DNA of 13,213 nt from a virus (IMGVR_UViG_3300048998_000119:1-13213), one strand, 5' to 3'; positions 1 to 13,213 are shown, numbered from the stretch's first letter. Made by a program: numbers and translations. The notes: a model not told the origin generated them from the letters alone.

Positions 1-3000
1 ATGAAACTCTAGTTCTTTCTCTTGCAAATTTTCAAAGTCACTAGTGTATAACTTCTTGGCGGCCACCACATCAGGACGTTTATTGATGGCGTCGATGGTG
101 TTCATCTGAGCTTGCCAAGCTGGATCTTTGATTGCGCTCACACCGGGCTTCAACTTTGCTTTAGTGAAGTAATTCACTACGCTATCTAAAGCTCCAAATG
201 CGGAATCAAGTATTCCAGGCATCGGACGTGCGGTCTCCCTCAGCGCGTCGTCTGCGTCACTGTAGGCCCATTGAAGACTACGATCTTTGAGACGTGCAAG
301 CTTTTGAGCATAAGTCAGTTTATCCAGCGGATCTTCATATTCGACAGGCGACATCTCCATATCGCTTATAACTGTACCGTCGTTGTTCAGATTACCACTT
401 ACACGACCATCTGCTCGACCACCCTTGGCGAAAGCCGGGAGTGGCTTGCCGCCGTTGATGGCCTCGACCAGACCACGGTTTGCCGAGTACGACGCCGCGT
501 TGATCACAAATTCGCCGTTCGACAAACGCGCCAGCACCGAGTCGGAGGTGCCGGTACCTGGACCACGAACCTCGCCGCCCGTCGCCCTGGAGGCGGAGAC
601 AGCTTTGGTTGTGGGATCGGTCGCGGTCGCCTTATCGGGGACGGTGGGTTTGGCCTTGTCGGGAGCCGTGCCGCCCAGCCACGTGGGCAGAACAGAACGA
701 ATCTTATCGATGATGCCCAAGAACTTGTCCGGGAGCTTCTCGAAGAAGCCGATCGGATCCTTGATCGCCGCACTGATCTTATCGACGATGCTCGTGAAGA
801 CACTGCCGACCCAAGTGAACATAGCTTTGATGCTGTCCACAAAGGCTTGACCCACAGCGGTGATGGTGGCCCAATTGCTTACAATCAAGTAACCCACACC
901 GATGACCGCAGCAATTAGCGCCGCAGCGATCAACACAGGCCAACCCACAAGACCAGCAATAAAGGTCGCAGCCATAGTTACGCCGGTGATTACAGCACTC
1001 GCGAGGAAACCTACACCCGCAGCGGCAGCCGTGGCCGCGCCCGCAGCGATTGCACCGACACGCTGAATGGCCAAGAAGCCGTAGTACTGTGCACGGAAGG
1101 CAATCCAGTAAGCCAATGCCTTGGCACCTTCAAGTGCCGTTTGAGCAAGCTTGGTGCTCATGATCGATTTCAGAATCATCCCCGGAAGACCGAGGAAAAG
1201 GAAGCCGATGAACTGACCGGCGAGCGCACCCAGCATAGAGCCGAGGCCCTGACCGATGGCCATGCCGCCGAACTGATAGAAAACCTGCTTGAGCATAGGT
1301 ACAGGCAGAGAAGCGACAACAGTCTTGGCGAATTCCTGACCGGCCTTATCCAGATTGCCGATCTCGATTTTACCCGAGACGACATCCTTGGCTTGGTCTG
1401 AAGTTAGACGCTTGCCCTTGATCGTGACTTGATCGTTAGCCTGGAGTGCCTGCGCACCTTTGGCGTTACGATCGGTTTGGGCACGTTCGAGCGCCATATT
1501 GCCGACCTGCATGCCGACACCCGTGCCGACAGCACCGCCCACGAGCGTACCGAAATTCATCAGACCGCCCCTAATGGCTGCGCCCTGATCGCTGAACTTT
1601 TTGGCCGTTGCATCGGCGATGTCGCGAACCTTCTTGGCTCCAGCCAAAGCTGCACCGCCCGTTCGGTCACGATTGCCTTGCGCAGCAATAACAGCTGTAC
1701 GCTCATTCTGCACATTCTTCAACGCGTCATTGTGAGCGGGATCGGTGTAACCGGCTGGAAGCTGACCACTCGCCAAAGCAAGTTTGGCCGCGTTCTTACC
1801 CATCGGCGCACCCGCAGCGTTCATGGCGTTGGCGAGCTTATCGAGAGCAACCTCAAAGCGAAGCTTGGAAGTCTCAAGCGCGGTGTCCAGGCGACTTACG
1901 ACGCGGTTTGCACCACCTTCAGCAATCCTGGCGGAGACAACCTGACCGGCATAACCGACACGATTGGCCACAGCCTGACCGGCTTTACCCGGAGCAGTTG
2001 CGATGCCCATAGCCATCTTGGCGAAGTATTCACGACCAGCCTTAAACAGCAGAGAGAATTTGGCGATGAGCAGAAGGAAACCGAACGGATCCTTACTGAT
2101 CGGACCACCCATCAACAGACGGAAGCCCTTGTCAATCATATTGACGGCAAAGCTGGCGAGCTTGATGAACAGTTCATGCCACAAACGCTCATCGATGAAA
2201 CGAGCGCTGGAAGCCAAAGCGGCGGTTGTGAACAGAGAAATGACCACAGAACGAGTGGTGCCGCTCTTCATTGCGAGCATCAGACCACCAACCACCAAAG
2301 CGGTGATGCCTGCGGCGAGAGGAGCCTGCTTGTCGCGAGGAATATGAAGCTTATCCGCAAGCATAAAGCGGGTGTAGTTCTTGATGGCTACCTGACCGCT
2401 CATGGGATCCTGTTCACGGACCTTCATGTTGCCGTTGAAGAACTTATTCCCTGCGGCGAGTACCTTGTTTGCGCCTTCACGACCATCGTCGACTGTGTCA
2501 ACTGCGGCGTTCTTGACGGTGACTCCGACTTTACTCAGAGGTGCTTTGACGAACTTATCCACGGCGTCGGAGAGAACCCCGGTGCCCTTGGTGAAGATAT
2601 CCATCACGCTTTCGAGACCGTCGCCCTTGAGCAAGCTGAAGGCACCGTAACCGGCACCAGCCAACCCTGCGACTATGGCAAACTTCTTCAGCAGACCCAG
2701 ACCCGCATTCAGCGAACCAAACGGATTGATGCTGGCGAAGAGACCTGCGGCGACGGTGACAAACTTCTTGACAAACGACAAAGGTGCGCCGGTGAGCTTG
2801 CCGATCCAGCTGATGATACCTTCGACCAGATCAGGAATATACGAGTGACCGATGGTCACATCATACAACCACCAGAACCAGTGAGCGGCGGCTTGTGCCC
2901 AACTTTTGATCGTGTCGAGAGCCACACTCAGGTTCGGAATGAACTTATTGACGTCGATGTTCTTCAGACTGTTGAACAGCGTACCGATATACTGACCGAG

Positions 3001-4242
3001 ATTGATGTCTTTGAGTTTCATGATGCCCGCACGCACACCGTCGATGGCACCCTTGAAGAAGGAACCATAGTCGATCTGACTGAGCAGGTCACGGAACTTA
3101 CGGAAGTTGGTCAGAATATACTGGTTGGCTCTACCGATTGCGTCGGCGACACCCGCAGTCATACTGCTCTGCTTCAACCATGCGAGGAAGCTGAAGAACA
3201 TGCCACTGGAACCGTCGTAGACCGCGTTGGCGTAAGACATCAGCGTACCATACAAGGCAATCGCATAAGGCTTGACCGCTTCCACAACCATGCCGAACGC
3301 CTTGACGATACCTTCCGGACCGCTGGAAATTGCATCCCAGAGACCTTGGAAGAAGATCATCGTGCTGGCCACAAAATTGAAAGCCTTAGCTTCAGCCATG
3401 ACCAGATAGTAACCGAAGCTCTGAGCAAACTCACCGATTGCTTGAGCCCAACCGTTGATCACTTCGGCGAGACCGCCACCACTTGATCCCAGGAACGCCT
3501 TGCTGACCGCGCCGAACAGCAGAGTCAGAGAAGTTCCCATGTTGGTGAAGGCTTGCCCGAAGGTGACCTGCATGGTCTTGGCTTTGGCGTTGATCTCGTC
3601 ACTGGCGTGCAGAATACCTCGCAGCACGTCCTTGGTGAACAACTGACCGGCGTTCTTCATCTTCAGCAATTGCTGAACCGTTACGCCCATACCCTTGGCG
3701 ATCATCGCCGCAGTGTAAGGACCGTTCTCCATGATCGAGTTGAACTCGTCACCGTTCAAAACGTTCTTGGCCAGTGTCTGACCCAACTGCAGCATGACCG
3801 AGTTGGTCTCTTCGGCGTTTGCGCCGCTGACCTGAATGGACTGCGCCACGGCCTTAGTCGCAATGGCCACCTGCTGCTGGCTCATACCCAGCGCAGAAGA
3901 GTTTAGCTGGAACTTGGAATAGAGCGAACTCACACCTTCCAGCCGAGAGTGAGTGTCGAGTGCGATCTTCCCGACCATGTAGAGGGCGTTCTTTGCCTCG
4001 ACCTGGCTCTTGGTGAACACAGACACACGGTTGGTGACCTGCGTCATAGTGTCGGAAAGATGCATAAACCCTGAGATTGCACCATACAAAGCACCGCCGA
4101 ACGCGAGCGCCTTGCCGAAGCTGTACATTTTGGTCGTCAAACTCTGCGCGGCACCTTGAATGCCTTGCACAGATTCTCTTAGCTGGCTGAGATCCTTGCG
4201 TGCTTGCGCGGAGTCAGACAGCGTCTGAATTACAATTGCCAT
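1..4242 (-). CDS. Tail tape measure protein, 3'-truncated by the window edge (>=1414 aa)
   Basis: Not in the ORF track. ATG at 4242 is preceded by GGAG (TTTGGAGTTCAT-ATG). I translated 4242-2701, 1620-1 and the remainder via the codon-aligned antisense ORF, and the frame stays open to base 1. The N-terminus MAIVIQTLSDSAQARKDL...LQLGQTLAKNVLNGDEFNSIMENGPYTAAMIAKGMGVTVQQL matches the tape-measure N-terminal domain pattern. Internal WLYDVTIGHSYIPDLVEGI and ATGGEVRGPGTGTSDSVLARLSNGEFVINAA...FAKGG are motifs typical of TMPs. Ala/Gly-rich, and located after the tail chaperones. Confidence 0.95.
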   Translation of the reverse strand, partial: MAIVIQTLSDSAQARKDLSQLRESVQGIQGAAQSLTTKMYSFGKALAFGGALYGAISGFMHLSDTMTQVTNRVSVFTKSQVEAKNALYMVGKIALDTHSRLEGVSSLYSKFQLNSSALGMSQQQVAIATKAVAQSIQVSGANAEETNSVMLQLGQTLAKNVLNGDEFNSIMENGPYTAAMIAKGMGVTVQQLLKMKNAGQLFTKDVLRGILHASDEINAKAKTMQVTFGQAFTNMGTSLTLLFGAVSKAFLGSSGGGLAEVINGWAQAIGEFAQSFGYYLVMAEAKAFNFVASTMIFFQGLWDAISSGPEGIVKAFGMVVEAVKPYAIALYGTLMSYANAVYDGSSGMFFSFLAWLKQSSMTAGVADAIGRANQYILTNFRKFRDLLSQIDYGSFFKGAIDGVRAGIMKLKDINLGQYIGTLFNSLKNIDVNKFIPNLSVALDTIKSWAQAAAHWFWWLYDVTIGHSYIPDLVEGIISWIGKLTGAPLSFVKKFVTVAAGLFASINPFGSLNAGLGLLKKFAIVAGLAGAGYGAFSLLKGDGLESVMDIFTKGTGVLSDAVDKFVKAPLSKVGVTVKNAAVDTVDDGREGANKVLAAGNKFFNGNMKVREQDPMSGQVAIKNYTRFMLADKLHIPRDKQAPLAAGITALVVGGLMLAMKSGTTRSVVISLFTTAALASSARFIDERLWHELFIKLASFAVNMIDKGFRLLMGGPISKDPFGFLLLIAKFSLLFKAGREYFAKMAMGIATAPGKAGQAVANRVGYAGQVVSARIAEGGANRVVSRLDTALETSKLRFEVALDKLANAMNAAGAPMGKNAAKLALASGQLPAGYTDPAHNDALKNVQNERTAVIAAQGNRDRTGGAALAGAKKVRDIADATAKKFSDQGAAIRGGLMNFGTLVGGAVGTGVGMQVGNMALERAQTDRNAKGAQALQANDQVTIKGKRLTSDQAKDVVSGKIEIGNLDKAGQEFAKTVVASLPVPMLKQVFYQFGGMAIGQGLGSMLGALAGQFIGFLFLGLPGMILKSIMSTKLAQTALEGAKALAYWIAFRAQYYGFLAIQRVGAIAAGAATAAAAGVGFLASAVITGVTMAATFIAGLVGWPVLIAAALIAAVIGVGYLIVSNWATITAVGQAFVDSIKAMFTWVGSVFTSIVDKISAAIKDPIGFFEKLPDKFLGIIDKIRSVLPTWLGGTAPDKAKPTVPDKATATDPTTKAVSASRATGGEVRGPGTGTSDSVLARLSNGEFVINAASYSANRGLVEAINGGKPLPAFAKGGRADGRVSGNLNNDGTVISDMEMSPVEYEDPLDKLTYAQKLARLKDRSLQWAYSDADDALRETARPMPGILDSAFGALDSVVNYFTKAKLKPGVSAIKDPAWQAQMNTIDAINKRPDVVAAKKLYTSDFENLQEKELEFH

Positions 4243-4251
4243 ATGAACTCC

Positions 4252-4287
4252 AAATTAAAAACCCAGGATCTGTTAGGACCCTGGGTT
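4252..4287 (-). terminator. Putative intrinsic terminator/attenuator immediately upstream of the tape measure RBS
   Basis: Minus-strand RNA AACCCAGGGUC-CUAACA-GAUCCUGGGUU (11-bp stem with one G-U pair, 6-nt loop) runs into UUUUUAAUUU. It overlaps the stop codon of the gp10-like gene. Confidence 0.7.
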
Positions 4288-4608
4288 CGAATGCATTACC
4301 GTGACGATAGAGCCAATCGGTTTGCCAAAACGTAAAGCTATCGATTCGATAAAGAACGAGGGCGCCTGTCTCGAAGAGCCCCTGTCCAAATATTCTATGT
4401 AGCTTGCATCATTCAGTACTCGAAACTTCGGGAATGATCCTTCAATTTTCCAGCGCGACTTGGCGTAGCCAGTGTCGACCGGAGTTGCTGCTTCCAACAG
4501 CAAGAGCATGTTAGCCAATCGGCTCTTCATTTCTGCTTCAGTCAGGGTGTGAACCTGATTATATACGTTTTTGAAAGTTTCTTCGACACCTTTAAAGACC
4601 ATCTTCAT
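4273..4608 (-). CDS. HK97 gp10-like tail completion/neck protein (111 aa)
   Basis: Contains TPVDTGYAKSRW...NDASYIEYLDRGSSRQAP, the pattern typical of HK97-gp10-like proteins. Start moved from the track's GTG at 4644 to ATG 4608, which follows the upstream TAA by 1 nt and has AGGA 8 nt upstream. Confidence 0.8.
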   Translation of the reverse strand: MKMVFKGVEETFKNVYNQVHTLTEAEMKSRLANMLLLLEAATPVDTGYAKSRWKIEGSFPKFRVLNDASYIEYLDRGSSRQAPSFFIESIALRFGKPIGSIVTVMHSNPGS

Positions 4609-4609
4609 A

Positions 4610-4960
4610 TTAGAGATCCTGTAAGATTTCGAGTTTGTCTCCACCTTTTGCGTTCATCATCATGGCATGCAAGAAGGATCCAGCCTGCGGGACCGGATTG
4701 GTTGTGGCCTTGGAGCGATGCTCCTTCATAATGGCCAGAGACGAGAAGAGTTGTTCGGGGTTAGATTTAACACCCGCAGCCCTCAAGAGTTTAAACGTAC
4801 GGTCGTCATCCCTCCAGCCTATGGGTCGTTGATCGAAGTATTCCAACCAGAGAGCGTACTCCTGATAAGACATATTCTCCAACAACTCATAGACCGGTGT
4901 TCTGAGAGCGAGCGCCAACTCAAAGATGGGCAACAACTCCGAGGTTAATGTCAGCGCGCC
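4610..4960 (-). CDS. Tail assembly chaperone C-terminal extension (lambda gpT-like), most likely translated only as a -1 frameshift fusion to the upstream chaperone (about 223-aa product)
   Basis: The reading frame is open from the slippery site at 4966-4960 (GALTLTSELLPIFELALALRTPVYELLENMSYQEYALWLEYFDQRPIGW...). The track's TTG start at 4936 has GGAG directly abutting it, too close to work as an RBS. The sequence resembles gpT-like segments (LALALxxPVxELxxxMSxxExxxWxxY). Confidence 0.8.
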   Translation of the reverse strand, partial: GALTLTSELLPIFELALALRTPVYELLENMSYQEYALWLEYFDQRPIGWRDDDRTFKLLRAAGVKSNPEQLFSSLAIMKEHRSKATTNPVPQAGSFLHAMMMNAKGGDKLEILQDL

Positions 4961-5280
4961 TTTGGGTCCATACCCGCGTAAGCCAGGACGGCGTCGGACA
5001 GCTTGTTCAGATCATCCATCGGGAAGTTCTGGAAGTCATCGTCGGTGAAGTCGGCTGCGGACGGTACGCCCATGCGAATGACATTCTGCAGCAGTTCGAA
5101 ACCCTTCTCCGGATTCTCAGGAGTAAGATCCTTCGCCTGCTTCTGAATTTCGGTGCACTCTGCGAGAGTGAGCTTGTTGATTTCAATCCGGGTGCCCGCA
5201 AACGGAACGACCTTGGTCTGACGACGATTGATGAGCTCGCGCAGATTGGTGACAACGTTGGGCTTCTTGATATCAGCCAT
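4951..5280 (-). CDS. Tail assembly chaperone (gpG-like, 109 aa)
   Basis: Small acidic helical protein between the tail tube and tape measure genes. It has an AAGGA RBS and ends in a slippery heptamer. Confidence 0.82.
   Translation of the reverse strand: MADIKKPNVVTNLRELINRRQTKVVPFAGTRIEINKLTLAECTEIQKQAKDLTPENPEKGFELLQNVIRMGVPSAADFTDDDFQNFPMDDLNKLSDAVLAYAGMDPKAR
4960..4966 (-). promoter_or_regulatory. Programmed -1 ribosomal frameshift slippery heptamer C CCA AAG
   Basis: X XXY YYZ heptamer in the correct phase (GAC CCA AAG) two codons before the chaperone TGA. A -1 slip enters the downstream open frame. This is the same arrangement as lambda G/GT (G GGA AAG). Confidence 0.85.
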
Positions 5281-5503
5281 GTGAATTTTCCTTGAAATTT
5301 GCTGCCTGGAAATCGTCCAGGTTCTTACGTAGATCGTGCAATACCATCAGCGTGTACATGACTTCCTTGGAGAGATCAGGGTCATCCTTGAACTCTTTCC
5401 AACGATCATTGGTCTTGCGAATACTGATGTCGATACTTCTGCGAATATGCTTGGCCGTAGCCTTTAGCACGTAATCGCGTGTGAATGGCTGTTTGTCGGC
5501 CAC
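5273..5503 (-). CDS. Hypothetical protein (76 aa)
   Basis: GTG start with CAAGGA 7 nt upstream. The stop overlaps the next start by 8 nt (CATGGCTGA), as for other genes of this operon. No motif recognised. Confidence 0.75.
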   Translation of the reverse strand: MADKQPFTRDYVLKATAKHIRRSIDISIRKTNDRWKEFKDDPDLSKEVMYTLMVLHDLRKNLDDFQAANFKENSHG

Positions 5504-5520
5504 TTAGTTATCCTTGATAG

Positions 5521-5546
5521 GAGGGAGGAGCCGAAACCCCTCCCTC
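5521..5546 (-). other. Stable RNA hairpin directly after the major tail protein stop (no U-tract)
   Basis: Minus-strand RNA GAGGGAGG-GGU-UUCG-GCU-CCUCCCUC: 8 Watson-Crick pairs plus 3 more (two wobble) closing a UUCG loop. It is followed by CUAUCAAGGA, not poly-U. Confidence 0.7.
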
Positions 5547-5552
5547 TGTAAA

Positions 5553-6137
5553 TCAGACAGTGAACGCGCCGTAAAGCTCGCTCAGCATCGAGATCGTCAG
5601 CGTGGCCTGATTCGCATCAGTCAGCTGAGGATTGTAGACGAGCGCCTCAACCTTACCGGTGAAGTAGAACTCCGAGTTCGGCACAGTGCCGAGACCAGTG
5701 CTCTTCGACTCGAATGAGGTGGGCGGGGAGTTCAGCATCGCGAAGCGGAAGGCACGGACGACGCCGTCGCCAACCATGCTGCCGAGAAGCTGCGTTGCGC
5801 CCTTGGCCCAGTCCGCTGCAACATAATTGAGGGTGAGCTCAATCGAAGGTGCGTCGGCCTGACCCTGTACCTGCGAACTCGTGCGTGCGCCGAAACGAGG
5901 CACGTTGACGATGTTGGCCGGAATACCGAGCGACGGGAACTCACGAACGTTCTGAATACGAATGAACGTACCAGCCGCTTCCGTGCCGCCGACTGCGGTG
6001 ATCTCAGTCGCGAAAGCCGCAACGAAAAGAGCCTCGGTGTTCATCGCCGTAATCTGAGCGGCGGTGAGATCCGTGGCAGGAGAGGCTACCGACATATCCG
6101 AGAACATGCCAGCGCCAATCGAAGTAAGATGCGCCAT
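5553..6137 (-). CDS. Major tail (tube) protein (194 aa)
   Basis: VREFPSLGIPANIVNVPRFGARTSSQVQGQADAPSIELTLNY and a C-terminal FYFTGKVEALVYNPQLTDANQATLTIS resemble siphovirus tube proteins. Canonical position, GGAG RBS, TAATG overlap, strongly biased codons and a downstream hairpin. Confidence 0.88.
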   Translation of the reverse strand: MAHLTSIGAGMFSDMSVASPATDLTAAQITAMNTEALFVAAFATEITAVGGTEAAGTFIRIQNVREFPSLGIPANIVNVPRFGARTSSQVQGQADAPSIELTLNYVAADWAKGATQLLGSMVGDGVVRAFRFAMLNSPPTSFESKSTGLGTVPNSEFYFTGKVEALVYNPQLTDANQATLTISMLSELYGAFTV

Positions 6138-6529
6138 TAATTCACTCCAAAATGAGAATAGGGCAGGGAATAAATAACACGCGCCACTGATGGGTTGTCT
6201 TTATCACGTTCCTGCCGGTCAAGCGATGAGTTGAACAGCTGTGTTCTTCCCACCGACTTGTGCTGTAAATACTTATCCAGCGTATCCGCCAATTCGGAGG
6301 CGGGCTTTGGCCCTAAACCCCAAGCGGTGTATATTTCTACCAGCAACACTCCGGAACTGGATGCAGCGTTGAGTGGGGGTCCACTTGGGACGATGGTAAA
6401 GAGGAGGTATGGCGGAGGGCCTTTCTCAACTTCAACTGATCGTGGATAAATCGCGACGTGCTCTTCTTCCCAAGCAGCAGACGCAAAGATCGAAAAGATA
6501 TCGTTCTCACAACCTACGTACTTACCCAT
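6137..6529 (-). CDS. Probable tail terminator protein (130 aa)
   Basis: Assigned by position immediately before the tube gene, size, and the pattern (PYLLFTIVP...GVLLVEIYTAWGLG...ELADTL) typical of gpU/gp17-like proteins. Start moved to ATG 6529, which has a perfect GGAGGT RBS; the track start at 6559 is unlikely. Confidence 0.68.
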   Translation of the reverse strand: MGKYVGCENDIFSIFASAAWEEEHVAIYPRSVEVEKGPPPYLLFTIVPSGPPLNAASSSGVLLVEIYTAWGLGPKPASELADTLDKYLQHKSVGRTQLFNSSLDRQERDKDNPSVARVIYSLPYSHFGVN

Positions 6530-6854
6530 GGTACACCTCCACAATTTGTGTGTAGCCATTGTCTACTATGGTTTGACCGAGAGTCCACTCCTGACCGTCC
6601 ATAGTAACTTTGTCGAAGAGATCGAGTTGATCTATCCTCTGAATCAGCAATTGCCGTTTGACCATGTCGAGCTTCTGGGTGGTACTCACAACTAGTGCTT
6701 TTGCAGGAGTCACTTTGTCTTTGGCTGAGACACTACCACTCTTGTAGTCAAACTTCTGTTCGCTTTTCAAATGAAAAACAACGTCGATCTGCAGAGAGAC
6801 CGTCTTCTTGAAAACAGCAGTGAGCTGTTTGCCGATCAGCTTTCCATAATCCAT
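6522..6854 (-). CDS. Probable head-closure/head-tail joining protein (110 aa)
   Basis: Beta-rich small protein between adaptor and terminator (FDYKSGSV...DKVTMDGQEWTL). Start moved to ATG 6854, a TAATG overlap with GGAG upstream. The function is assigned mainly from synteny. Confidence 0.62.
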   Translation of the reverse strand: MDYGKLIGKQLTAVFKKTVSLQIDVVFHLKSEQKFDYKSGSVSAKDKVTPAKALVVSTTQKLDMVKRQLLIQRIDQLDLFDKVTMDGQEWTLGQTIVDNGYTQIVEVYHG

Positions 6855-7297
6855 TAGTTGGCTCTCCACCAACTCCCTGCACCCGTCAAGATGCCACTCG
6901 AACGAGTATAGGGACCGATGTATCGCATCACGATCTTTGGGATCAGAGCTACGACGCCGAGGTTTTCCAGATGGATCGGACCCACGACAAGCGTTTGAAC
7001 CGTCTCGTCCTCCTGCAGCACACCGGGATTCACAAGCAGATGAATAGCCTGCTCGTAAAGTGCCCAGAGAACCATAGTGGGGGTTGACAGTGTTCTGCCG
7101 TCGAGGTAACGCGGGAAAGCCGCCGCAGAATAGTAAGGTCTACCTTCCCATTCCATGGCGTTGAGTAGATTGGCGGCGGTGACGAGAGCAGCTTTCTTGC
7201 CGTCCTCATCACCGTTCGTCCAAGCCTCGCTGTTTAGGCGAGTCAAGAAATAGGCGTCCGCATCATCGACAGTTGCGTCTGTGATTACGATCGCCAT
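6854..7297 (-). CDS. Head-tail adaptor/connector (often annotated 'DnaT-like'), 147 aa
   Basis: TVDDADAYFLTRLNSEAW...KKAALVTAANLLNAMEWEG...AFPR is the ADAY...W...K.AAL..A...W.G...PR pattern of adaptors encoded directly after major capsid genes. Confidence 0.8.
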   Translation of the reverse strand: MAIVITDATVDDADAYFLTRLNSEAWTNGDEDGKKAALVTAANLLNAMEWEGRPYYSAAAFPRYLDGRTLSTPTMVLWALYEQAIHLLVNPGVLQEDETVQTLVVGPIHLENLGVVALIPKIVMRYIGPYTRSSGILTGAGSWWRAN

Positions 7298-7303
7298 AGC
7301 AGA

Positions 7304-8503
7304 TCAGCCGTGGAAGACCGGGAGGATACCCATGGTCAGCGCGCTGGTAGCCTTACGACGCCACACGCTCTCGACGGTATCTTCGTTGGTGTTTGCCGTG
7401 ACCGAAGCATCCGTGATCGGCACAACGATGTTCGAGCCGTCGCCGACAGTCACACCCTTGTAGTCCGCGTCGGACGGGAACTTGTTGGTCGGACCACGCC
7501 AGTCGTAACCGACCGGATGCATCACATAACCCCAACGGTTCCAAACGTCGGTCGAGCCACCACCGTGGTAGCTGGCTTCATTCTCGTCGATACCGGTCGG
7601 CTTCGGAATCGTGAGATTCTCGAAAGCGATGGCACCCGGAAGCACGACGAACGAGGTACGCGTACCCACAATATCGACACCCGAACCGCCGTTGATCGCA
7701 GCCAGTTCAGTCGTGTTGAACGACGTGTTGGTGCGGCTCATGACGAGACGGAACTTACCCGAGAAGATGCTCTCGAACTCGATCGGACCATCGCTGACGC
7801 GATCAGTGTCGATCAGGTTGGCCGAACGCAGGTTCGCCATCAAAGCAGGATCGATTACGAGATAAGCGTAATCCGGCTCGTAGTCCTTCCACGCCATACC
7901 GAGTGCCTGGACGAGACCGAAGACACGAGCAGCGCCGACGCCCACGCTCGACACAAGCGGGTTGTTACCCAGATCGACGTAGAAGCCATAGTTGCGGTTG
8001 GTCGGATCGTTGTCGAAGGTCTGACCGCCGAGACCGACAGAAGCACCCTCAACCGAAGCAGCGCCCCGGAAAGCTTCCGAGAAGGCGACACCCTTAAGAA
8101 CAGCGAGGAACGCGTTCTCTTCGTCCTTGACACGACCGTTTGCGAAACCGGTACCCATCTTGGTGAGCGCGTCTTCCTTCGTCACCAGCTCCGTGAGGTT
8201 CACCTTGTACGCGCCCTGAGTACGGGCGGTCTTGATGTAGTTCAGGAAGTCAGCGCTGAAGTTGCTGGGCACACCGTTCGTGGGATCGACCAGCGAGGCG
8301 ATGTTGATGATGTTGTTCATCGGCGTATCCCACTTCAGCTGACCGATGAAGGTCTCCTGCGAGGGATCGATGGTGGAGTTGCCCGAGACGATCCCCGAAG
8401 CGGAGATACGACGAGCGTCGGTGTAGGCTTCAGCGGCGATAGCCGTGATCGACGTCTGAATGACGTACTTGTTGCCTACGCCATCAGTGAAATTATCGGG
8501 CAT
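7304..8503 (-). CDS. Major capsid protein, HK97 fold, SPP1 gp13-like coat family (399 aa)
   Basis: Size, position after the scaffold, AAGGT RBS and high-expression codon bias. Segments recognisable from this family: ...FLAVLKGV, YLVIDPALMANLRSANLI, TSFVVLPGAI, GGGSTDVWNRWGYVMHPVGY. Confidence 0.9.
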   Translation of the reverse strand: MPDNFTDGVGNKYVIQTSITAIAAEAYTDARRISASGIVSGNSTIDPSQETFIGQLKWDTPMNNIINIASLVDPTNGVPSNFSADFLNYIKTARTQGAYKVNLTELVTKEDALTKMGTGFANGRVKDEENAFLAVLKGVAFSEAFRGAASVEGASVGLGGQTFDNDPTNRNYGFYVDLGNNPLVSSVGVGAARVFGLVQALGMAWKDYEPDYAYLVIDPALMANLRSANLIDTDRVSDGPIEFESIFSGKFRLVMSRTNTSFNTTELAAINGGSGVDIVGTRTSFVVLPGAIAFENLTIPKPTGIDENEASYHGGGSTDVWNRWGYVMHPVGYDWRGPTNKFPSDADYKGVTVGDGSNIVVPITDASVTANTNEDTVESVWRRKATSALTMGILPVFHG

Positions 8504-8517
8504 TCATTTGTACCTTA

Positions 8518-9177
8518 TTATCGAGAGAGTTTACCCTCTTTAGCCATTCGCAGAATTTCTTGTGTGCTCTTGCCTACAAGCTTACCGGAGGTCTGCGTAC
8601 CGGGTTTGCGTGGTGTCGACGTCGGAGTATCCGTGCCGCGATTTTCCTTCTTGGCGAAGAGGAACTCGTTGTCCTCATCTTCTGCGTACGTCTTGATATA
8701 GTCGCTGATGGACTTACCCGACTTGTGTACCCAAACACCCTTATCGTCCTGGACGAGGTCCTTGATCACAGCGTCGTATACAAGGGCGTATGCCTTCTCA
8801 TTCCGGAACTTGTATCCAGAAAGATCTCGTTGGACAGTGTTGTCGCGCGTGAGCTCGATAACCGCAGTCTTGAGTTCCTCGATCTCCTTGTCCTTATCGG
8901 CCAAGAGACCTTCGAAGTGCTCCTTATCCTTGCCTTCGTCTTTCAGCTTCTGAAGCTCCGCGTCGCGGATCTGCTTCTTCAATGCGTCGCGTTCTGCCTT
9001 GAGGGTGTCGCGTTCGCCATAAGCCTTGTTCAGCTTGTCCTTGATGGGAGCGAGGTCGTCTTTCTCCACGGGAGTGCCGTCCTCATTCTTCGTCGGATCG
9101 AAGCTGGGATTGTCGATCATCTGACCTTCGTTGTCGGGGTCGGCGATCTGCTTAGGGTTCGAATTCTCAGTCGTCAT
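8518..9177 (-). CDS. Capsid scaffolding protein (219 aa)
   Basis: Acidic, disordered N-terminus; coiled-coil core (IKDKLNKAYGERDTLKAERDALKKQIRDAELQKLKDEG); FLF followed by a G/P/T-rich linker and basic C-terminal helix; directly upstream of the capsid gene. Start moved to ATG 9177 (AAAGGAAAGAAC-ATG). Confidence 0.87.
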   Translation of the reverse strand: MTTENSNPKQIADPDNEGQMIDNPSFDPTKNEDGTPVEKDDLAPIKDKLNKAYGERDTLKAERDALKKQIRDAELQKLKDEGKDKEHFEGLLADKDKEIEELKTAVIELTRDNTVQRDLSGYKFRNEKAYALVYDAVIKDLVQDDKGVWVHKSGKSISDYIKTYAEDEDNEFLFAKKENRGTDTPTSTPRKPGTQTSGKLVGKSTQEILRMAKEGKLSR

Positions 9178-9188
9178 GTTCTTTCCTT

Positions 9189-9262
9189 TGAGCACAGCTC
9201 AGGCGTTGTGGCACAGCACACAACTTGATGGGGTAGGCAGGAAGTGAGGTCACTTCACGCCT
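9189..9262 (-). promoter_or_regulatory. Structured leader of the scaffold-capsid genes: three consecutive hairpins, two with identical GC-UGU-GC tops
   Basis: mRNA sense: AGGCGUGAAGUG-ACCU-CACUUCCUGCCU (9262-9235), GUUGUG-U-GC-UGU-GC-CACAAC (9224-9205) and UGAGC-UGU-GCUCA (9201-9189), with the RBS starting at 9188. The structure is read from the sequence; the function is inferred. Confidence 0.6.
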
Positions 9263-9710
9263 GGGTTAAATTAACGGGGTCGGCCTTGATCTTACGCGCA
9301 GGTTTCTTCTTGTAAGGATGATTGTCTTTTATAACAGTCATAATCTCATCGACTATATTTTGTAGAAGATAAGCTTCTGCTTCATCACCGGGATTCTTCT
9401 CGCCGATATGCCGCCAAAGTGCTTGGACACAGTGAAGCGCTTCATGAGCCGCCACACCTGCCATTGAATATGGATTCCAAGACAATCTATTGGACAGCAA
9501 TACTATTACGGCCAGTCTATTTGTTTTATCGTTGATGAACTCGTAGGTGGTTGCAAAGCCTTTAGTGATCTCAGCATCCTCGTGCGGAACACCTAGAGAA
9601 TCCAGAACTAGTCTAAAATCCTCCAGGCTATCCACAACAGCGAAATGCATAGGGTAAACACCATAATCCTTCCAGTGCTTATCAGCCAACCCCGTACCAG
9701 CCTCTGTCAT
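9255..9710 (-). CDS. Hypothetical protein with HExxH motif (putative zincin/gluzincin-like metalloprotein, 151 aa)
   Basis: VAAHEALHCVQALW...GDEAEAYLL gives HExxH plus a downstream Glu helix as in gluzincins. It fills the gap between RNAP and scaffold and overlaps the RNAP 3' end by 29 nt. The RBS is weak, so the start is uncertain. Confidence 0.75.
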   Translation of the reverse strand: MTEAGTGLADKHWKDYGVYPMHFAVVDSLEDFRLVLDSLGVPHEDAEITKGFATTYEFINDKTNRLAVIVLLSNRLSWNPYSMAGVAAHEALHCVQALWRHIGEKNPGDEAEAYLLQNIVDEIMTVIKDNHPYKKKPARKIKADPVNLTQA

Positions 9711-12700
9711 TCTTAAAATCTTTCTCTATCTCTTGCAGAATATCTTCCGGAGTCAGAATATCTTCTTGCGTGATGGTTCTGCCGCCGACGACTGACCTTC
9801 CGGCCACGGGTATAATACCGCTATCGATGGCTTCATTCAGATATTTATCATACAGTTCTTTGGGCAAGCCACGAGCTTTCAATTCGTCCAGCGTAGCCTT
9901 CACCGACTGAGTAGTAACAAGGTCTCCGTAGATTCCTCTAAGCGCGTCACGACCTCTTTGCATGTCCCCAATGTTCGTGAAGAACGCGTCGTGAATGGTA
10001 CTCGTAGGTACACCGTTTTTGCGTCCCCAAAGATGAAATCGCTTGACGATGACGGCGTCGTTTGAGTGGTTTCCGTTGACTGCGTAGGCAGTTCTGGCTC
10101 GTTGGGCGTCCGCGATGTCATTTATTTTTCCTGACTTATTGATTACCTGTTCCCACCACGTCGCCTCAGTCTTCTGAGGAACATGCAAGATGTTTGTCAT
10201 CCACTCACCACTCTTGTCTTTGTACCGCAGCCGCTCTTCGAATGACTGCGTATAGTTCTGCTCCAGCACCTTACCGTCGAAGTTGACCCAAGGAATGTTG
10301 GTCCAGCTCTTCGGGAGATTGTTGGCGTAGAAGACTTTGAGCTCAGTGAGGTTTACTACCTGCGCTATTTCTGTTTTGAAGTATGTTGCGCCAACCCTGC
10401 GTCTATCAGGCGTTTCAACGCCATAGATGAGATCTGCAAGATTTCCGTTGGGGGTCCAGAAACCGAATCTGCGGAGGACTTTTTCACTGACAGCTTCTCC
10501 GGGACGAGTGCCAAGAATTCGGTTAATGTTATCTGGGAGGACATAGCCCTTCTTCCTTTCTCCGAGTAAGCTGATCTTGGCGATCGACTTCCAATCAAAA
10601 TCAGAATTGGAAGGCTTGGCGTTGCCGATGAAGTCTTGAGCCAGACGACCGAAGAACTTCGTGAAGTCTTTCAGAATTGGAACTTCGCTGGCGAGGTATT
10701 CAGACATGATGCTGGCAATCAACTTGAAGTCGTCCGGCGTAACAACCTTGTCGTACGAGGAAGACATCTTCTCGACCAGCTCACGAGTCTGAGGCGACAA
10801 GAAGTAAAGTTGATCCATGATCTCATCGCCGGGATCTTCGCCCTTGTTGAACGAATCACGAATGTTCTGACGCAGACGACGCAGCTCAAGGCCGGTGTCC
10901 GGATCATAACGTTCCACCCGCGCGATACGGGCGTCTATCTCTTGCAGAACAGAGTCACGCTCCGAGGCTTTCACCACCAGAACATTTTCCTGTTTGTTTA
11001 AGACTTTGGAGAGCTTACCTTCGACGTTCAAGCCGCTGGTCTTCTCACCTGCACCGTAGAAGGTGACCATGTTCTGAGCCTTAGCCGCTTTACGCAAATC
11101 GGCCTCCTTCAATCCAAGCTTCTCGTTGAGCGTTTTGAATCGTGGATCCGAGTACGTGCGGGCGGCGATCTCATCGTACAAACGACGCTTCTGCTCCGTG
11201 GGCACAACGTTGGACAGTTCAGCCAACTGCTTATTCTTCGTGGTCAACGCAATGATCTGCGCACCAGAAGACGAAGCATCCTGCTCGATGGCGAAGTCGG
11301 TTAGATAATTAGCCAACTTAGTTGTATCGGAGTAATCCCCTCCGAGAAAATTATCGACTCTGGTTTGTTCGAGAGCGAGTCGGAAGAATTTTCCTTGCTC
11401 TTCTCCGTCGATCCTGGCGACCATGGGGTGTTCCAGAATAAACCGAATGTCAGCTGGTCGTCGTCTTTGCATAGCGGTGCCGATGTCGACAAGATCTTTC
11501 CTCCATTTCAAGGCAATGTTTTGCCGTCCAGTGATCGTGAGATTGTTATAGTTACCCTCGAATACCTCGTCGAGTCCACCGAGGAAAGCACCGATCTGGT
11601 CTTGAAGGTTATTGAACCCGTCAACCCCAAGTGGCTTGTGAGCTTCAGTGGAGAGGAAGGGACGGAAAGTCTCGCCCGATTGCGGACTGATGAGCCCACG
11701 GTCATAGACACGCGCTCGGTGATCAATGAAAGGATGATTGGAGAACGTTTGATCTTTCGACCGCAACCACGACATGGTCTTAAATCGTTCATACGTATCC
11801 TGTCGGGACTGTAGATACTTTCTGTATTCGTTGAGCTCGTTGTACTTCTTGGCTCCACCTCGGTCGTCTTCAAAATAAACGAGTTTATCGATGAAATCGA
11901 AGAAGTCTTTATCGATACGATACTTGGTGTTCGCGGCCCAGTTGAGAGTGTCGGCGAACTCCTTATCGATGAACTCGTCCGGGAAGTCGGAGAAGCTACT
12001 TGTGCTGGTGATGGGGATTCGAGTGTCGGAATAGCCCAAGATCCCTTCGTCGATGAAATAAGTTTTGTAACCTGGACGAATGACCAACCGGTTCTTGTCG
12101 GCGGTTACAGACACACGCAGACCGAGGTCCACACGTCGTTGCAGACGAGCGTAGTTGGTGATGCGCGGATCAACCGTCCTGAGATTAAACGACTGAGTGT
12201 CGTAGTAAGGACCGAAGTAGTTGTTGCTCAAACGAGACTTCATACGACGTTTCTGAACGCCATATGTTTCTATCTCATAGAACTTCTTCGCCCGCTTGTT
12301 CTCAAGCATCTTCACGCCGAGATTATACCAGTCGTTCCTGGCACCGTTGAGGTTGGCCATGTTGTACAGGTCTCGCCCCAGCGTGACGGCCAGCGTATCA
12401 CGATCCGGCAATTCGGCAAACGCCAGACGGTGCGCGAATCGCAGGTAGAACTGCTGTAGGTCGCGGTCGGAGAGCCGCAGACGCAATTGCAGAGGAATGT
12501 CCCTCTGGAATACCGGACGCAACTCCGATGCGATCTTGGGAGCAACAGTATCTTCCCACTTGTTGCGAGCCTTGATGTTACTCAAGAGACCGTCGTGGAG
12601 ATCTTGCAGCTGCACAGGTCCAAGAACGGGATCGATGTAGTTGTCCTGCAGAAGCTTCTTGAACGGATTAGAATCCGTGCGCAACTGCGTTTCCAGAGAA

Positions 12701-13213
12701 TCAGAAATGTTCTGTACGTCGAATTTCAACTGTGCCTGGATGACACCCTTGAGGTTGCCCCACACCTCACCGTCGAGGCGTTGACGCCCCAGAATGATAC
12801 GAAGGTTGTCTGCGATAACCGCTCGCTCGTTCATGCTCATCTTCAATTCAAGTGCGTCCATCATGTTGCGGATGAACTTCTTGTCGTCGGCGGTGATCTT
12901 GTCACTTTCGTCGACCAACCTCAGAGCGTTGTTGAACACACCGGGATTGGGCTGATACAGACGAGTGTCTTCATAACGGCCGGTGATCGGATTAAACTTC
13001 ATCTGATCTTCAGTCGGGAGGCTGTTCAGCACACGCGTTTTGGTGGCCTTCTTGGTGTGCAACAAAGCGCCACGGTAGTTGGTTAAAGACAGATTACCGT
13101 CCAAGTCTTTGCTCTGCAACAGATAGTAATCCTGCAGGGTCTGGAAGAACTTGGGATCGGAAATCAACTGATCCGCCGTCGAAGCACCCAGCTGCATAGC
13201 GTCCAAGGTGTTC
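9682..13213 (-). CDS. Single-subunit DNA-directed RNA polymerase of the T7/T3 family, enlarged and 5'-truncated by the window edge (>=1176 aa)
   Basis: All T7-RNAP hallmark motifs occur in order: DHRARVY...SPQ (DxxGR motif, D at 11724), motif A EQDASSSGAQ (D at 11280; T7 FDGSCSGIQ), motif B RKAAKAQNMVTFYG (Rx3Kx7YG, 11094-11053), WVNFDG...QNY (T7 WVTPDG...QEY), NGNHSNDA (T7 NFVHSQDG) and motif C TIHDAF (D at 9990; T7 IHDSF). The frame is open past the track's TTG at 13206 to the window end (..AAC ACC TTG), so the true start lies upstream. Confidence 0.95.
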   Translation of the reverse strand, partial: NTLDAMQLGASTADQLISDPKFFQTLQDYYLLQSKDLDGNLSLTNYRGALLHTKKATKTRVLNSLPTEDQMKFNPITGRYEDTRLYQPNPGVFNNALRLVDESDKITADDKKFIRNMMDALELKMSMNERAVIADNLRIILGRQRLDGEVWGNLKGVIQAQLKFDVQNISDSLETQLRTDSNPFKKLLQDNYIDPVLGPVQLQDLHDGLLSNIKARNKWEDTVAPKIASELRPVFQRDIPLQLRLRLSDRDLQQFYLRFAHRLAFAELPDRDTLAVTLGRDLYNMANLNGARNDWYNLGVKMLENKRAKKFYEIETYGVQKRRMKSRLSNNYFGPYYDTQSFNLRTVDPRITNYARLQRRVDLGLRVSVTADKNRLVIRPGYKTYFIDEGILGYSDTRIPITSTSSFSDFPDEFIDKEFADTLNWAANTKYRIDKDFFDFIDKLVYFEDDRGGAKKYNELNEYRKYLQSRQDTYERFKTMSWLRSKDQTFSNHPFIDHRARVYDRGLISPQSGETFRPFLSTEAHKPLGVDGFNNLQDQIGAFLGGLDEVFEGNYNNLTITGRQNIALKWRKDLVDIGTAMQRRRPADIRFILEHPMVARIDGEEQGKFFRLALEQTRVDNFLGGDYSDTTKLANYLTDFAIEQDASSSGAQIIALTTKNKQLAELSNVVPTEQKRRLYDEIAARTYSDPRFKTLNEKLGLKEADLRKAAKAQNMVTFYGAGEKTSGLNVEGKLSKVLNKQENVLVVKASERDSVLQEIDARIARVERYDPDTGLELRRLRQNIRDSFNKGEDPGDEIMDQLYFLSPQTRELVEKMSSSYDKVVTPDDFKLIASIMSEYLASEVPILKDFTKFFGRLAQDFIGNAKPSNSDFDWKSIAKISLLGERKKGYVLPDNINRILGTRPGEAVSEKVLRRFGFWTPNGNLADLIYGVETPDRRRVGATYFKTEIAQVVNLTELKVFYANNLPKSWTNIPWVNFDGKVLEQNYTQSFEERLRYKDKSGEWMTNILHVPQKTEATWWEQVINKSGKINDIADAQRARTAYAVNGNHSNDAVIVKRFHLWGRKNGVPTSTIHDAFFTNIGDMQRGRDALRGIYGDLVTTQSVKATLDELKARGLPKELYDKYLNEAIDSGIIPVAGRSVVGGRTITQEDILTPEDILQEIEKDFKNDRGWYGVG

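Follow-up and report, generated by a model that had tools for sequence, protein, structure and literature searches.

What does a gene for a T7-type RNA polymerase (RNAP) do in the head module of a phage, and might its product travel in the virion to start early transcription? The question is raised by IMGVR_UViG_3300048998_000119:1-13213, a stretch of 13,213 nucleotides (the whole stretch analysed, called the window below) that makes up bases 1-13213 of a 77,213-bp IMG/VR virus record rated 100% complete by CheckV. A preliminary description of the window had noted a co-oriented RNAP frame, longer than T7 RNAP, still open at the window edge and one small gene ahead of scaffold and capsid, and had suggested that an N-terminal MuF or other packaging domain might lie beyond that edge. 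In the complete record the frame is a single gene in which a MuF minor head protein domain is fused to a complete T7-type RNAP. We think it somewhat probable, by analogy with phage N4, that this protein would be a late-made, MuF-anchored virion polymerase that starts early transcription, after which a second phage RNAP would take over.

The fused gene and its polymerase module

The window frame at 9682-13212 (minus strand) holds 1176 open codons and runs past the window edge. In the genome it belongs to an uninterrupted open reading frame (ORF) of 1525 amino acids at 9682-14259 (minus strand), in which a MuF domain (residues 1-336), a helical domain (residues 344-532) and a T7-type RNAP (residues ~549-1525) follow one another from the N to the C terminus. 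The MuF domain, encoded at genome 13252-14259, lies just beyond the window, where a packaging domain had been surmised, and together with the helical domain it accounts for the excess length over T7 RNAP. The parts within the window and the catalytic motifs of the polymerase are these:

9682..13213, minus strand: 3′ 3.5 kb of the MuF-RNAP fusion gene, residues 350-1525 plus the TGA stop codon
12664..13213, minus strand: conserved helical domain between MuF and RNAP, residues 344-532 (the window part begins at residue 350), well predicted
9685..12615, minus strand: complete T7-type single-subunit RNAP module, residues ~549-1525, aligning to T7 residues 34-883
11710..11724, minus strand: T/DxxGR motif DHRAR (D846-R850), aligning to T7 DWRGR (D421-R425); R850 is invariant in 26 homologues
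11263..11286, minus strand: motif A EQDASSSG, aligning to FDGSCSG; D994 corresponds to T7 D537 and is invariant
11047..11094, minus strand: motif B RKAAKAQNMVTFYGAG; R1056/K1060/Y1068/G1069 align to T7 R627/K631/Y639/G640
9982..9996, minus strand: motif C IHDAF, aligning to IHDSF; H1423/D1424 correspond to T7 H811/D812

Pfam RNA_pol (PF00940) matched the window frame at 37.6 bits and the whole 1525-residue protein at 35.7 bits, both above the curated cut-off of 22 by which a protein is placed in the T7-like RNAP family, and PHROG 414 ('RNA polymerase') matched them with E values of 6e-23 and 1.7e-22, respectively. The only RNA-polymerase families among its 12 PHROG matches were the general ones, PHROG 414 and 2051. 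Alignment with T7 RNAP by hhalign (probability 99.2%, E 2.7e-19, T7 residues 397-877) paired motif B RKAAKAQNMVTFYG with T7 RSVTKRSVMTLAYG (K1060 = K631, Y1068 = Y639) and also paired NHSND with T7 VHSQD. Motifs A, B and C are intact, with their residues where the preliminary description had placed them, and the T/DxxGR motif completes the catalytic set. Across 26 full-length homologues R850, D994 and K1060 were invariant, and Y1068, G1069 and D1424 were conserved in at least 90%.

The predicted structure of residues 350-1525 (pLDDT 82, pTM 0.77) gave the same assignment. Foldseek matched it to T7 and mitochondrial RNAPs over their full lengths with E values of about 1e-17, and structural comparison of the model (VIA) with T7 RNAP gave Z 28.5 and a root-mean-square deviation of 3.6 Å over 528 aligned residues at 17% identity, covering model residues 204-1175 and T7 residues 38-882. 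The yeast and human mitochondrial RNAPs followed at Z 25-26, whereas the N4 mini-virion RNAP (2po4) scored only Z 16.1 with 9-10% identity, so that T7 RNAP is the nearer of the two. In the model a right-hand polymerase is preceded by a T7-type N-terminal promoter-binding domain, and the specificity-loop region is present, with an insertion of ~90 residues, modelled at low confidence, ahead of the loop. The protein ends with the polymerase, its last residues following the T7-like C terminus. A sequence search of solved structures yielded only a marginal match, to the large subunit of N4 RNAPII (E 0.31). By its predicted fold, the module is a T7-type enzyme in full, its promoter-binding domain at the N terminus included, and is not of the N4 type; judged by its conserved residues, it is apparently active.

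At the other end of the protein, Phage_Mu_F (PF04233) matched residues 132-237 with 39.6 bits (cut-off 29.6), which places the protein above the curated threshold for the MuF/SPP1 gp7 family, and PHROG 241 ('head morphogenesis') matched residues 51-334 with an E value of 2.7e-58. The motif LDSRT..C / PP.H..CRS was invariant across the MuF region of the fused family. No second MuF domain was found in a search of the complete 77-kb genome, and the separate gp7/MuF gene that would have told against the preliminary description is thus lacking. The fusion is the genome's MuF gene, located after the portal gene and before those for scaffold and capsid, and it has the layout of a MuF effector, with an N-terminal MuF anchor and a C-terminal enzyme cargo encoded among late genes; here, the cargo (the RNAP, ~980 residues) is far bigger than its anchor. 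An AlphaFold model of residues 1-560 (pLDDT 86) ended the MuF region at ~336 and showed low-confidence linkers at 337-343, a short one, and 533-546. Fold searches with these N-terminal 560 residues returned generic helical bundles only (best Z 8.8), which does not imply newness, and Foldseek with the same residues returned nothing at E ≤ 0.001 among solved structures. A complex prediction of MuF (residues 1-345) with the portal, both supplied as alignments, scored 0.00, which is evidence neither way.

The fused family and its second polymerase

A search with residues 700-1525 retrieved 441 clusters at 90% identity. Among the best 120 of these, nearly all carried both PF00940 and PF04233, were ~1540 residues long and came from contigs of up to 90 kb; where the homologues had a database name it was 'SPP1 gp7 family putative phage head morphogenesis protein'. 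Exhaustive phmmer searching of 1.84 billion representatives with the fused enzyme gave 161 matches, almost all from the fused family, the enzyme being too divergent for ordinary T7-like RNAPs to be reached. The fusion is found in hundreds of uncultured phages. When 26 diverse full-length members (20-62% identical) were compared, the MuF domain was kept in all 26 and the RNA_pol threshold was reached in 20. On this comparative sequence evidence, the MuF-RNAP fusion is real, intact and widely conserved, and it is old, with both halves selected for.

Named phages have it as well. In EBPR siphovirus 1 it corresponds to gp47 and gp49 together, with 60% identity, and in the cultured roseophages DSS3_VP1 and DSS3_PM1 (Naomviridae, with uracil-containing dU-DNA) to gp108, with 33% identity; the roseophage homologues are annotated as 'head morphogenesis' or 'minor head protein-like' only. 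The EBPR siphovirus 1 gene is cut in two ORFs by the HNH endonuclease gene gp48 (L006:10987-16360). In several uncultured relatives (loci L105, L121, L123 and L128) the matches to the fusion are 0.9-1.7 kb longer than the gene here, and relative G004 has breaks in each of its two polymerase genes. Such interruptions suggest homing elements, introns or inteins aimed at these polymerases.

The genome encodes a second RNAP, a canonical T7-like enzyme of 763 residues at genome 51518-53809 (minus strand; PF00940 243 bits, PHROG 414 E 1.6e-118). Behind it lie T7-like replication genes, namely those for DNA polymerase A, exonuclease, primase/helicase (PHROG 239, E 9e-113), ribonucleotide reductase and ligase. 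A canonical RNAP of ~765 residues accompanied the fusion in all eight genomes checked, namely this one, DSS3_VP1, all four near-complete relatives (66-97 kb) and two contigs present in both locus lists. The arrangement with two polymerases is a family trait.

Two classes of promoter-like sequence

Two dissimilar classes of promoter-like sequence were found. Class E, detected by seed-and-extend clustering, has the consensus AAAA[CT]GCGGAAA-N5-[GA]GTATCTTATATG[AG] with the core GTATCTTATATG; searches for exact 11-mers, and then for 12-18-mers with mismatches, in crudely delimited intergenic segments had found no promoter motif. The 77 kb hold three copies (genome 63962, 57510 and 55842), all on the gene strand and situated ahead of the canonical RNAP gene by 10.1, 3.7 and 2.0 kb, respectively, and nowhere else; a ribosome-binding site and start codon come 15-30 nt after each. 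The 12-mers of the class E core were, apart from one coding site in the second RNAP gene (RNAP2), the only ones of this genome to recur exactly in at least five of 13 relatives. The core is common to 12 of the 13, in which RNAP2 is 50-64% identical, and is invariant over 13 nt despite base compositions visibly unlike the 52% G+C found here. At the relatives' RNAP2 loci, collected via protein matches, exact copies are always on the gene strand and precede RNAP2 by 0.5-5 kb.

The end of class E, ...TCTTATATG, resembles the −5 to +1 part of T7-group promoters, and neither a −35-like element nor a conserved hairpin was found in it. Sigma-70-like sites were not enriched in the 20-kb early region and RNAP2 stretch (11 found, against 13 expected from shuffled sequence). 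An exact scan of viral_contigs with one class E spelling gave 0 matches, because the upstream box varies. The core was absent from EBPR siphovirus 1 (a partial record) and, in the spelling found here, from the near-complete relative G004 and from DSS3_VP1. Additional class E cores at G001:59484, G001:63410 and G003:82759 (loci L138-L140) are intergenic and far from the canonical RNAP gene; each has a ribosome-binding site and start codon after it but a weaker upstream box, lacking GCGGAAA. These may represent a weaker subclass or early genes scattered beyond the main early region.

The other class, M/L, has the consensus [AG]nCCCGTTnAnTTAACC(CAGG) and the motif CCCGTTnAnTTAACC, with seven matches on the gene strand and none on the other. 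Five copies are convincing (genome 51136, 35636, 30508, 24528 and 9281-9260) and every one of them is found downstream of the canonical RNAP gene; of the other two matches, that at 65653 is a weaker copy and that at 42675 probably arose by chance. The first copy, at 51136, comes about 380 nt past the stop codon of the canonical RNAP gene, much as the first T7 promoter, phi1.1A, comes 26 nt after T7 gene 1. The copy at 24528 stands after a hairpin and T13 run and ahead of the packaging genes. Only one copy falls in the window:

9260..9281, minus strand: M/L motif GACCCCGTTAATTTAACCCAGG, just upstream of the scaffold and capsid genes

An M/L motif follows the stop codon of the fusion gene in 10 of 14 relatives, at distances of 9-39 nt (mostly 9-13). 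Exact matching of conserved k-mers in the late region found no non-coding word; all conserved words were coding. The fusion gene itself is located in the late head module, downstream of the M/L copy at 24528, with no promoter-like motif of its own and with a terminator-like hairpin just upstream. Its position in the sequence is consistent with late expression.

Two similar punctuation elements, each a long GC-rich hairpin with a T13-T15 run 12-25 nt further on, were seen at genome 54601-54683 and about 24550-24620, the first of them between the last class E motif and the canonical RNAP gene and the second just ahead of the M/L motif that heads the packaging genes. The gap upstream of the packaging genes (genome 24357-24500) is AT-rich and contains three near-palindromic AACCTTAAGGTT-like repeats and a sigma-70-like pair, TTGACT-17-TAAGAT, which makes it a candidate for a pac site or an operator.

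The cultured relative DSS3_VP1 (NC_055826.1; host Ruegeria pomeroyi) has two classes of its own. An M/L-type motif, ATAGG[GT]T[GA]CGTTAAAG, occurs there in 13 forward copies between 2242 and 59211 (control count 1). None of these copies falls between the end of the tape-measure gene (35735) and the RNAP gene (42436-44634); they are distributed over the late region, with three just before the portal gene, and downstream of the RNAP gene. A class-E-like motif, AAAAAGTGAGAAAACTAAGGCATCTATAATGA, is present as two identical 32-nt copies at 35790 and 36237, where that interval begins, after the tape-measure terminator; it ends in ...GGCATCTATAATGA and resembles class E. The DSS3_VP1 literature searched mentions neither an RNA polymerase nor promoter classes.

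Because of the analogy with T7, we assigned class M/L to the canonical RNAP. Class E requires a polymerase that is present before the canonical RNAP has been made, and its reader would thus be either the host enzyme or one delivered by the virion. Two dissimilar consensus sequences match well with two phage polymerases.

All real genes in the window, and nearly all in the whole genome, lie on the minus strand, and those around the fusion form a head and tail module:

8518..9195, minus strand: head scaffolding protein, 225 residues (PHROG 206/194)
7304..8503, minus strand: major capsid protein, 399 residues (PHROG 247, E 9e-19)
6854..7297, minus strand: head-tail adaptor Ad1 (PHROG 477)
5553..6137, minus strand: major tail protein (PHROG 158)
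1..4242, minus strand: tape measure, N-terminal 1414 residues; the frame resumes at the opposite contig end
9255..9710, minus strand: 151-residue ORF with a HEALH (HExxH) motif, overlapping the end of the fusion gene by 29 nt

In the listed order a tail assembly chaperone-like ORF lies between the major tail protein and the tape measure. No sheath gene is among the annotated tail genes, from which we infer a long non-contractile tail. When the contig is joined as a circle the tape-measure frame reads through to ~2350 residues, and the assembly closes. The contig break falls inside a tape-measure repeat, with KKLYTSDFENLQEKELEFHA at both ends (window 1-4242; genome 74397-77213, L005:5398-8214).

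Scaffold and capsid genes follow the fusion within 500 nt. The preliminary description had proposed looking for a portal gene directly upstream; in a departure from the classical SPP1 order, in this genome five genes and about 5.3 kb lie between portal and fusion, whereas in DSS3_VP1 the two are neighbours, the order being portal, tRNA, fusion, a 248-residue hypothetical protein (the probable scaffold) and capsid. Directly upstream of the fusion in EBPR siphovirus 1 is gp46, a 'hypothetical protein' of 499 residues. Between portal and fusion here is a 411-residue protein with a GH5 cellulase domain (genome 14803-16038, L002:5804-7039), adjoined by an 866-residue glycine-rich protein. GH5 also forms the C terminus of an 879-residue probable tail fibre (genome 66082-68721, L004:17083-19722), and the two GH5 proteins are possibly depolymerases directed against a host polysaccharide.

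The small gene that the preliminary description had correctly noted between RNAP and scaffold is the 151-residue ORF. It matched PHROG 882/1365, of unknown function, gave weak structural leads to zincin-like peptidases (M78, SprT, matrixin; TM about 0.35), and carries the M/L promoter motif in its last codons. We considered it as a conserved partner protease and rejected that role, as it is missing at the same position in relatives and the zincin-like leads are weak. Its absence there indicates that it is probably an inserted accessory gene outside the system. N4-type virion RNAPs are usually fused to a zincin, and the presence of an HExxH ORF beside the fusion is possibly a notable coincidence.

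A proposed relay and its place among known systems

In the relay that we propose, the fusion would be made late, with the packaging and head genes, from the unit starting at 24528; the hairpin just upstream of its gene would fit low expression of the fusion, and the M/L promoter just downstream would fit high expression of scaffold and capsid. MuF would dock on the portal, after the paradigm of SPP1 gp7, and bring the polymerase into the procapsid in low copy number. At infection the fusion would leave with the DNA, or just ahead of it, through the long tail, and its polymerase would initiate at the class E promoters. The canonical 763-residue RNAP, once made, would read class M/L, CCCGTTnAnTTAACC, ahead of the packaging and capsid operons. 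N4 has three early promoters, and the class E copies here also number three. The fuller form of this proposal, in which the portal-carried fusion enters with the DNA and reads class E (GCGGAAA-N5-GTATCTTATATG) while the canonical RNAP reads CCCGTTAAATTAACC, throughout the family including Naomviridae, we advance tentatively, at a little short of an even chance. If true, these phages would be largely independent of the host RNA polymerase; they would also yield two single-subunit polymerase/promoter pairs, new and mutually orthogonal, and MuF would offer a general way of getting large enzymes into capsids.

Several observations weigh against delivery of the fusion, or against its reading class E. 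SPP1 gp7, in work attributed to Vinga and colleagues in 2006, was reportedly not detectably co-ejected with DNA in vitro, so that anchoring through MuF would be no guarantee of delivery; the polymerase module, at ~110 kDa, would need to be unfolded to get through the tail tube; and Pfam and PHROG scans identified neither a prohead protease nor a cleavage site between MuF and polymerase. As for the promoters, the DSS3_VP1 class-E-like motif contains a perfect TATAAT, so that host RNAP may be the reader of class E. Between the canonical RNAP gene here and the class E copy nearest to it stand a 17-bp hairpin and a T15 run, and of the three complete motif-bearing relatives two carry further class E copies well away from that gene. 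The reported behaviour of SPP1 gp7, the TATAAT and the missing protease and cleavage site would all suit a fusion that is packaged and not injected, remaining on the portal while host RNAP reads class E; there it might gate or hold the DNA end, or transcribe the last-entering or first-exiting DNA to pull or route the genome. This alternative, which also accords with the MuF paradigm of portal binding inside the capsid (PMC6316719), we regard as unlikely. A polymerase confined to the capsid would have no access to NTPs, and the retention of the promoter-binding N-terminal domain and specificity-loop region argues for promoter-specific initiation. Moreover, class E has no −35-like box and, in a way unlike sigma-70 promoters, its core keeps the same 13 nt among phages with only 50-64% identity in RNAP2 and with base compositions visibly unlike that of this genome.

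Since the promoters were assigned by position and analogy, they could also be exchanged, with the fusion acting as an intracellular middle or late polymerase on class M/L and the canonical RNAP reading class E; MuF would then merely couple the enzyme to assembling proheads or be the mark of a historical fusion. Co-oriented genes would allow read-through from class E to express the fusion, and in some relatives class E extends beyond the pre-RNAP region. We nevertheless consider this exchange still less likely than retention on the portal. The first M/L copy follows the canonical RNAP stop codon so closely as to recall phi1.1A of T7, the fusion gene is itself inside the M/L-driven late unit and could not start its own class, and the retention of MuF in 26 of 26 members, together with its being the genome's only MuF, points to a head function selected together with the polymerase. 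Least probable of all, and in our view very improbable, is that the polymerase module serves replication, by making primers or activating an origin on the incoming DNA, or is decayed, inactive cargo. T7 RNAP does prime replication at the primary origin of T7; the genome here has its own primase/helicase, and class E followed by a ribosome-binding site and gene is the layout of a promoter, not of an origin. Decay or inactivity was rejected in view of the conservation of the catalytic residues, which are invariant across 20-83% identity.

To our knowledge, few phage lineages (N4-like, crAss-like, phiKZ/AR9-like jumbo phages and P23-45) are known to have virion RNAPs, and each of the earlier discoveries changed the understanding of early infection in the phages concerned. 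Here a T7-type enzyme apparently enters the capsid by another means, the very widespread MuF minor head protein, in a phage family that is abundant in environmental metagenomes and has a cultured, tractable member in DSS3_VP1. If confirmed, the proposal would widen the concept of MuF cargo from toxins to a core information-processing enzyme, would explain a host-independent start of transcription (of speculative relevance to uracil-DNA phages), would provide two compact polymerase/promoter pairs that synthetic biology might use, and would correct the annotation of hundreds of 'head morphogenesis protein' entries. We found no description of a MuF-fused T7-type RNAP in the literature searched, whose coverage excludes most subscription journals.

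The fusion resembles gp50 of N4 (Schitoviridae) in being a single-subunit polymerase of the T7 superfamily encoded among late virion genes. In N4 a capsid-carried, injected RNAP reads the early promoters and a second phage RNAP then takes over (PMC4496689). That part of the comparison with N4 drawn in the preliminary description holds, in that a second, canonical RNAP is present as a relay would lead one to expect; the likeness does not extend to the fold, which is that of T7 and mitochondrial RNAPs (Z 25-28, over the whole polymerase and with the same catalytic motifs) and not that of N4 (Z 16). Nor does the architecture agree. N4 gp50, of ~3500 residues, has an N-terminal injection domain, a central polymerase and a C-terminal encapsidation region with a zincin (PMC5512222), whereas here the RNAP stands at the C terminus and MuF is the packaging module. 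The promoters of N4 are DNA hairpins, whereas class E has no conserved hairpin, and N4 is a podovirus, whereas the phage here would be long-tailed. Iyer et al. (2017) found N4-like virion RNAPs only in N4-like phages in a survey that used both MuF and the N4 virion RNAP as seeds (PMC5512222).

With the MuF effectors ('polymorphic toxin' or polyvalent proteins) the fusion shares an N-terminal MuF encoded in the head module and a C-terminal cargo enzyme, and for SPP1 gp7 the route into the procapsid by portal binding is established (PMC6316719; PMC5512222). Known MuF cargo comprises toxins, ADP-ribosyltransferases and nucleases, whereas the cargo here is an RNA polymerase; toxins are the sole MuF cargo mentioned in a review of the SPP1 genome (PMC6316719), and a MuF-polymerase fusion is listed neither there nor in PMC5512222. 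The Thermus phage P23-45 offers a parallel in a siphovirus: its virion RNAP is fused to a structural protein and transcribes the pre-early genes, including that for a second, non-virion RNAP (PMC10770324). That enzyme is a two-barrel RNAP of the cellular type carried on the tape measure, whereas here a T7-type enzyme is carried on a minor head protein and the tape measure is separate. T7 itself is matched in the replication module (DNA polymerase A, primase/helicase, exonuclease and ligase), whereas its RNAP is an early, non-virion, stand-alone protein of 883 residues to which the fusion adds ~550 N-terminal residues and the ~90-residue insertion. DSS3_VP1 shares with this phage a homologue of the whole fusion, a second canonical RNAP and two promoter classes; it differs in the portal gene, which adjoins the fusion there. 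The fusion belongs to the T7-type polymerases and the MuF cargo proteins, and we think it reasonably probable that it functions like the N4 virion RNAP.

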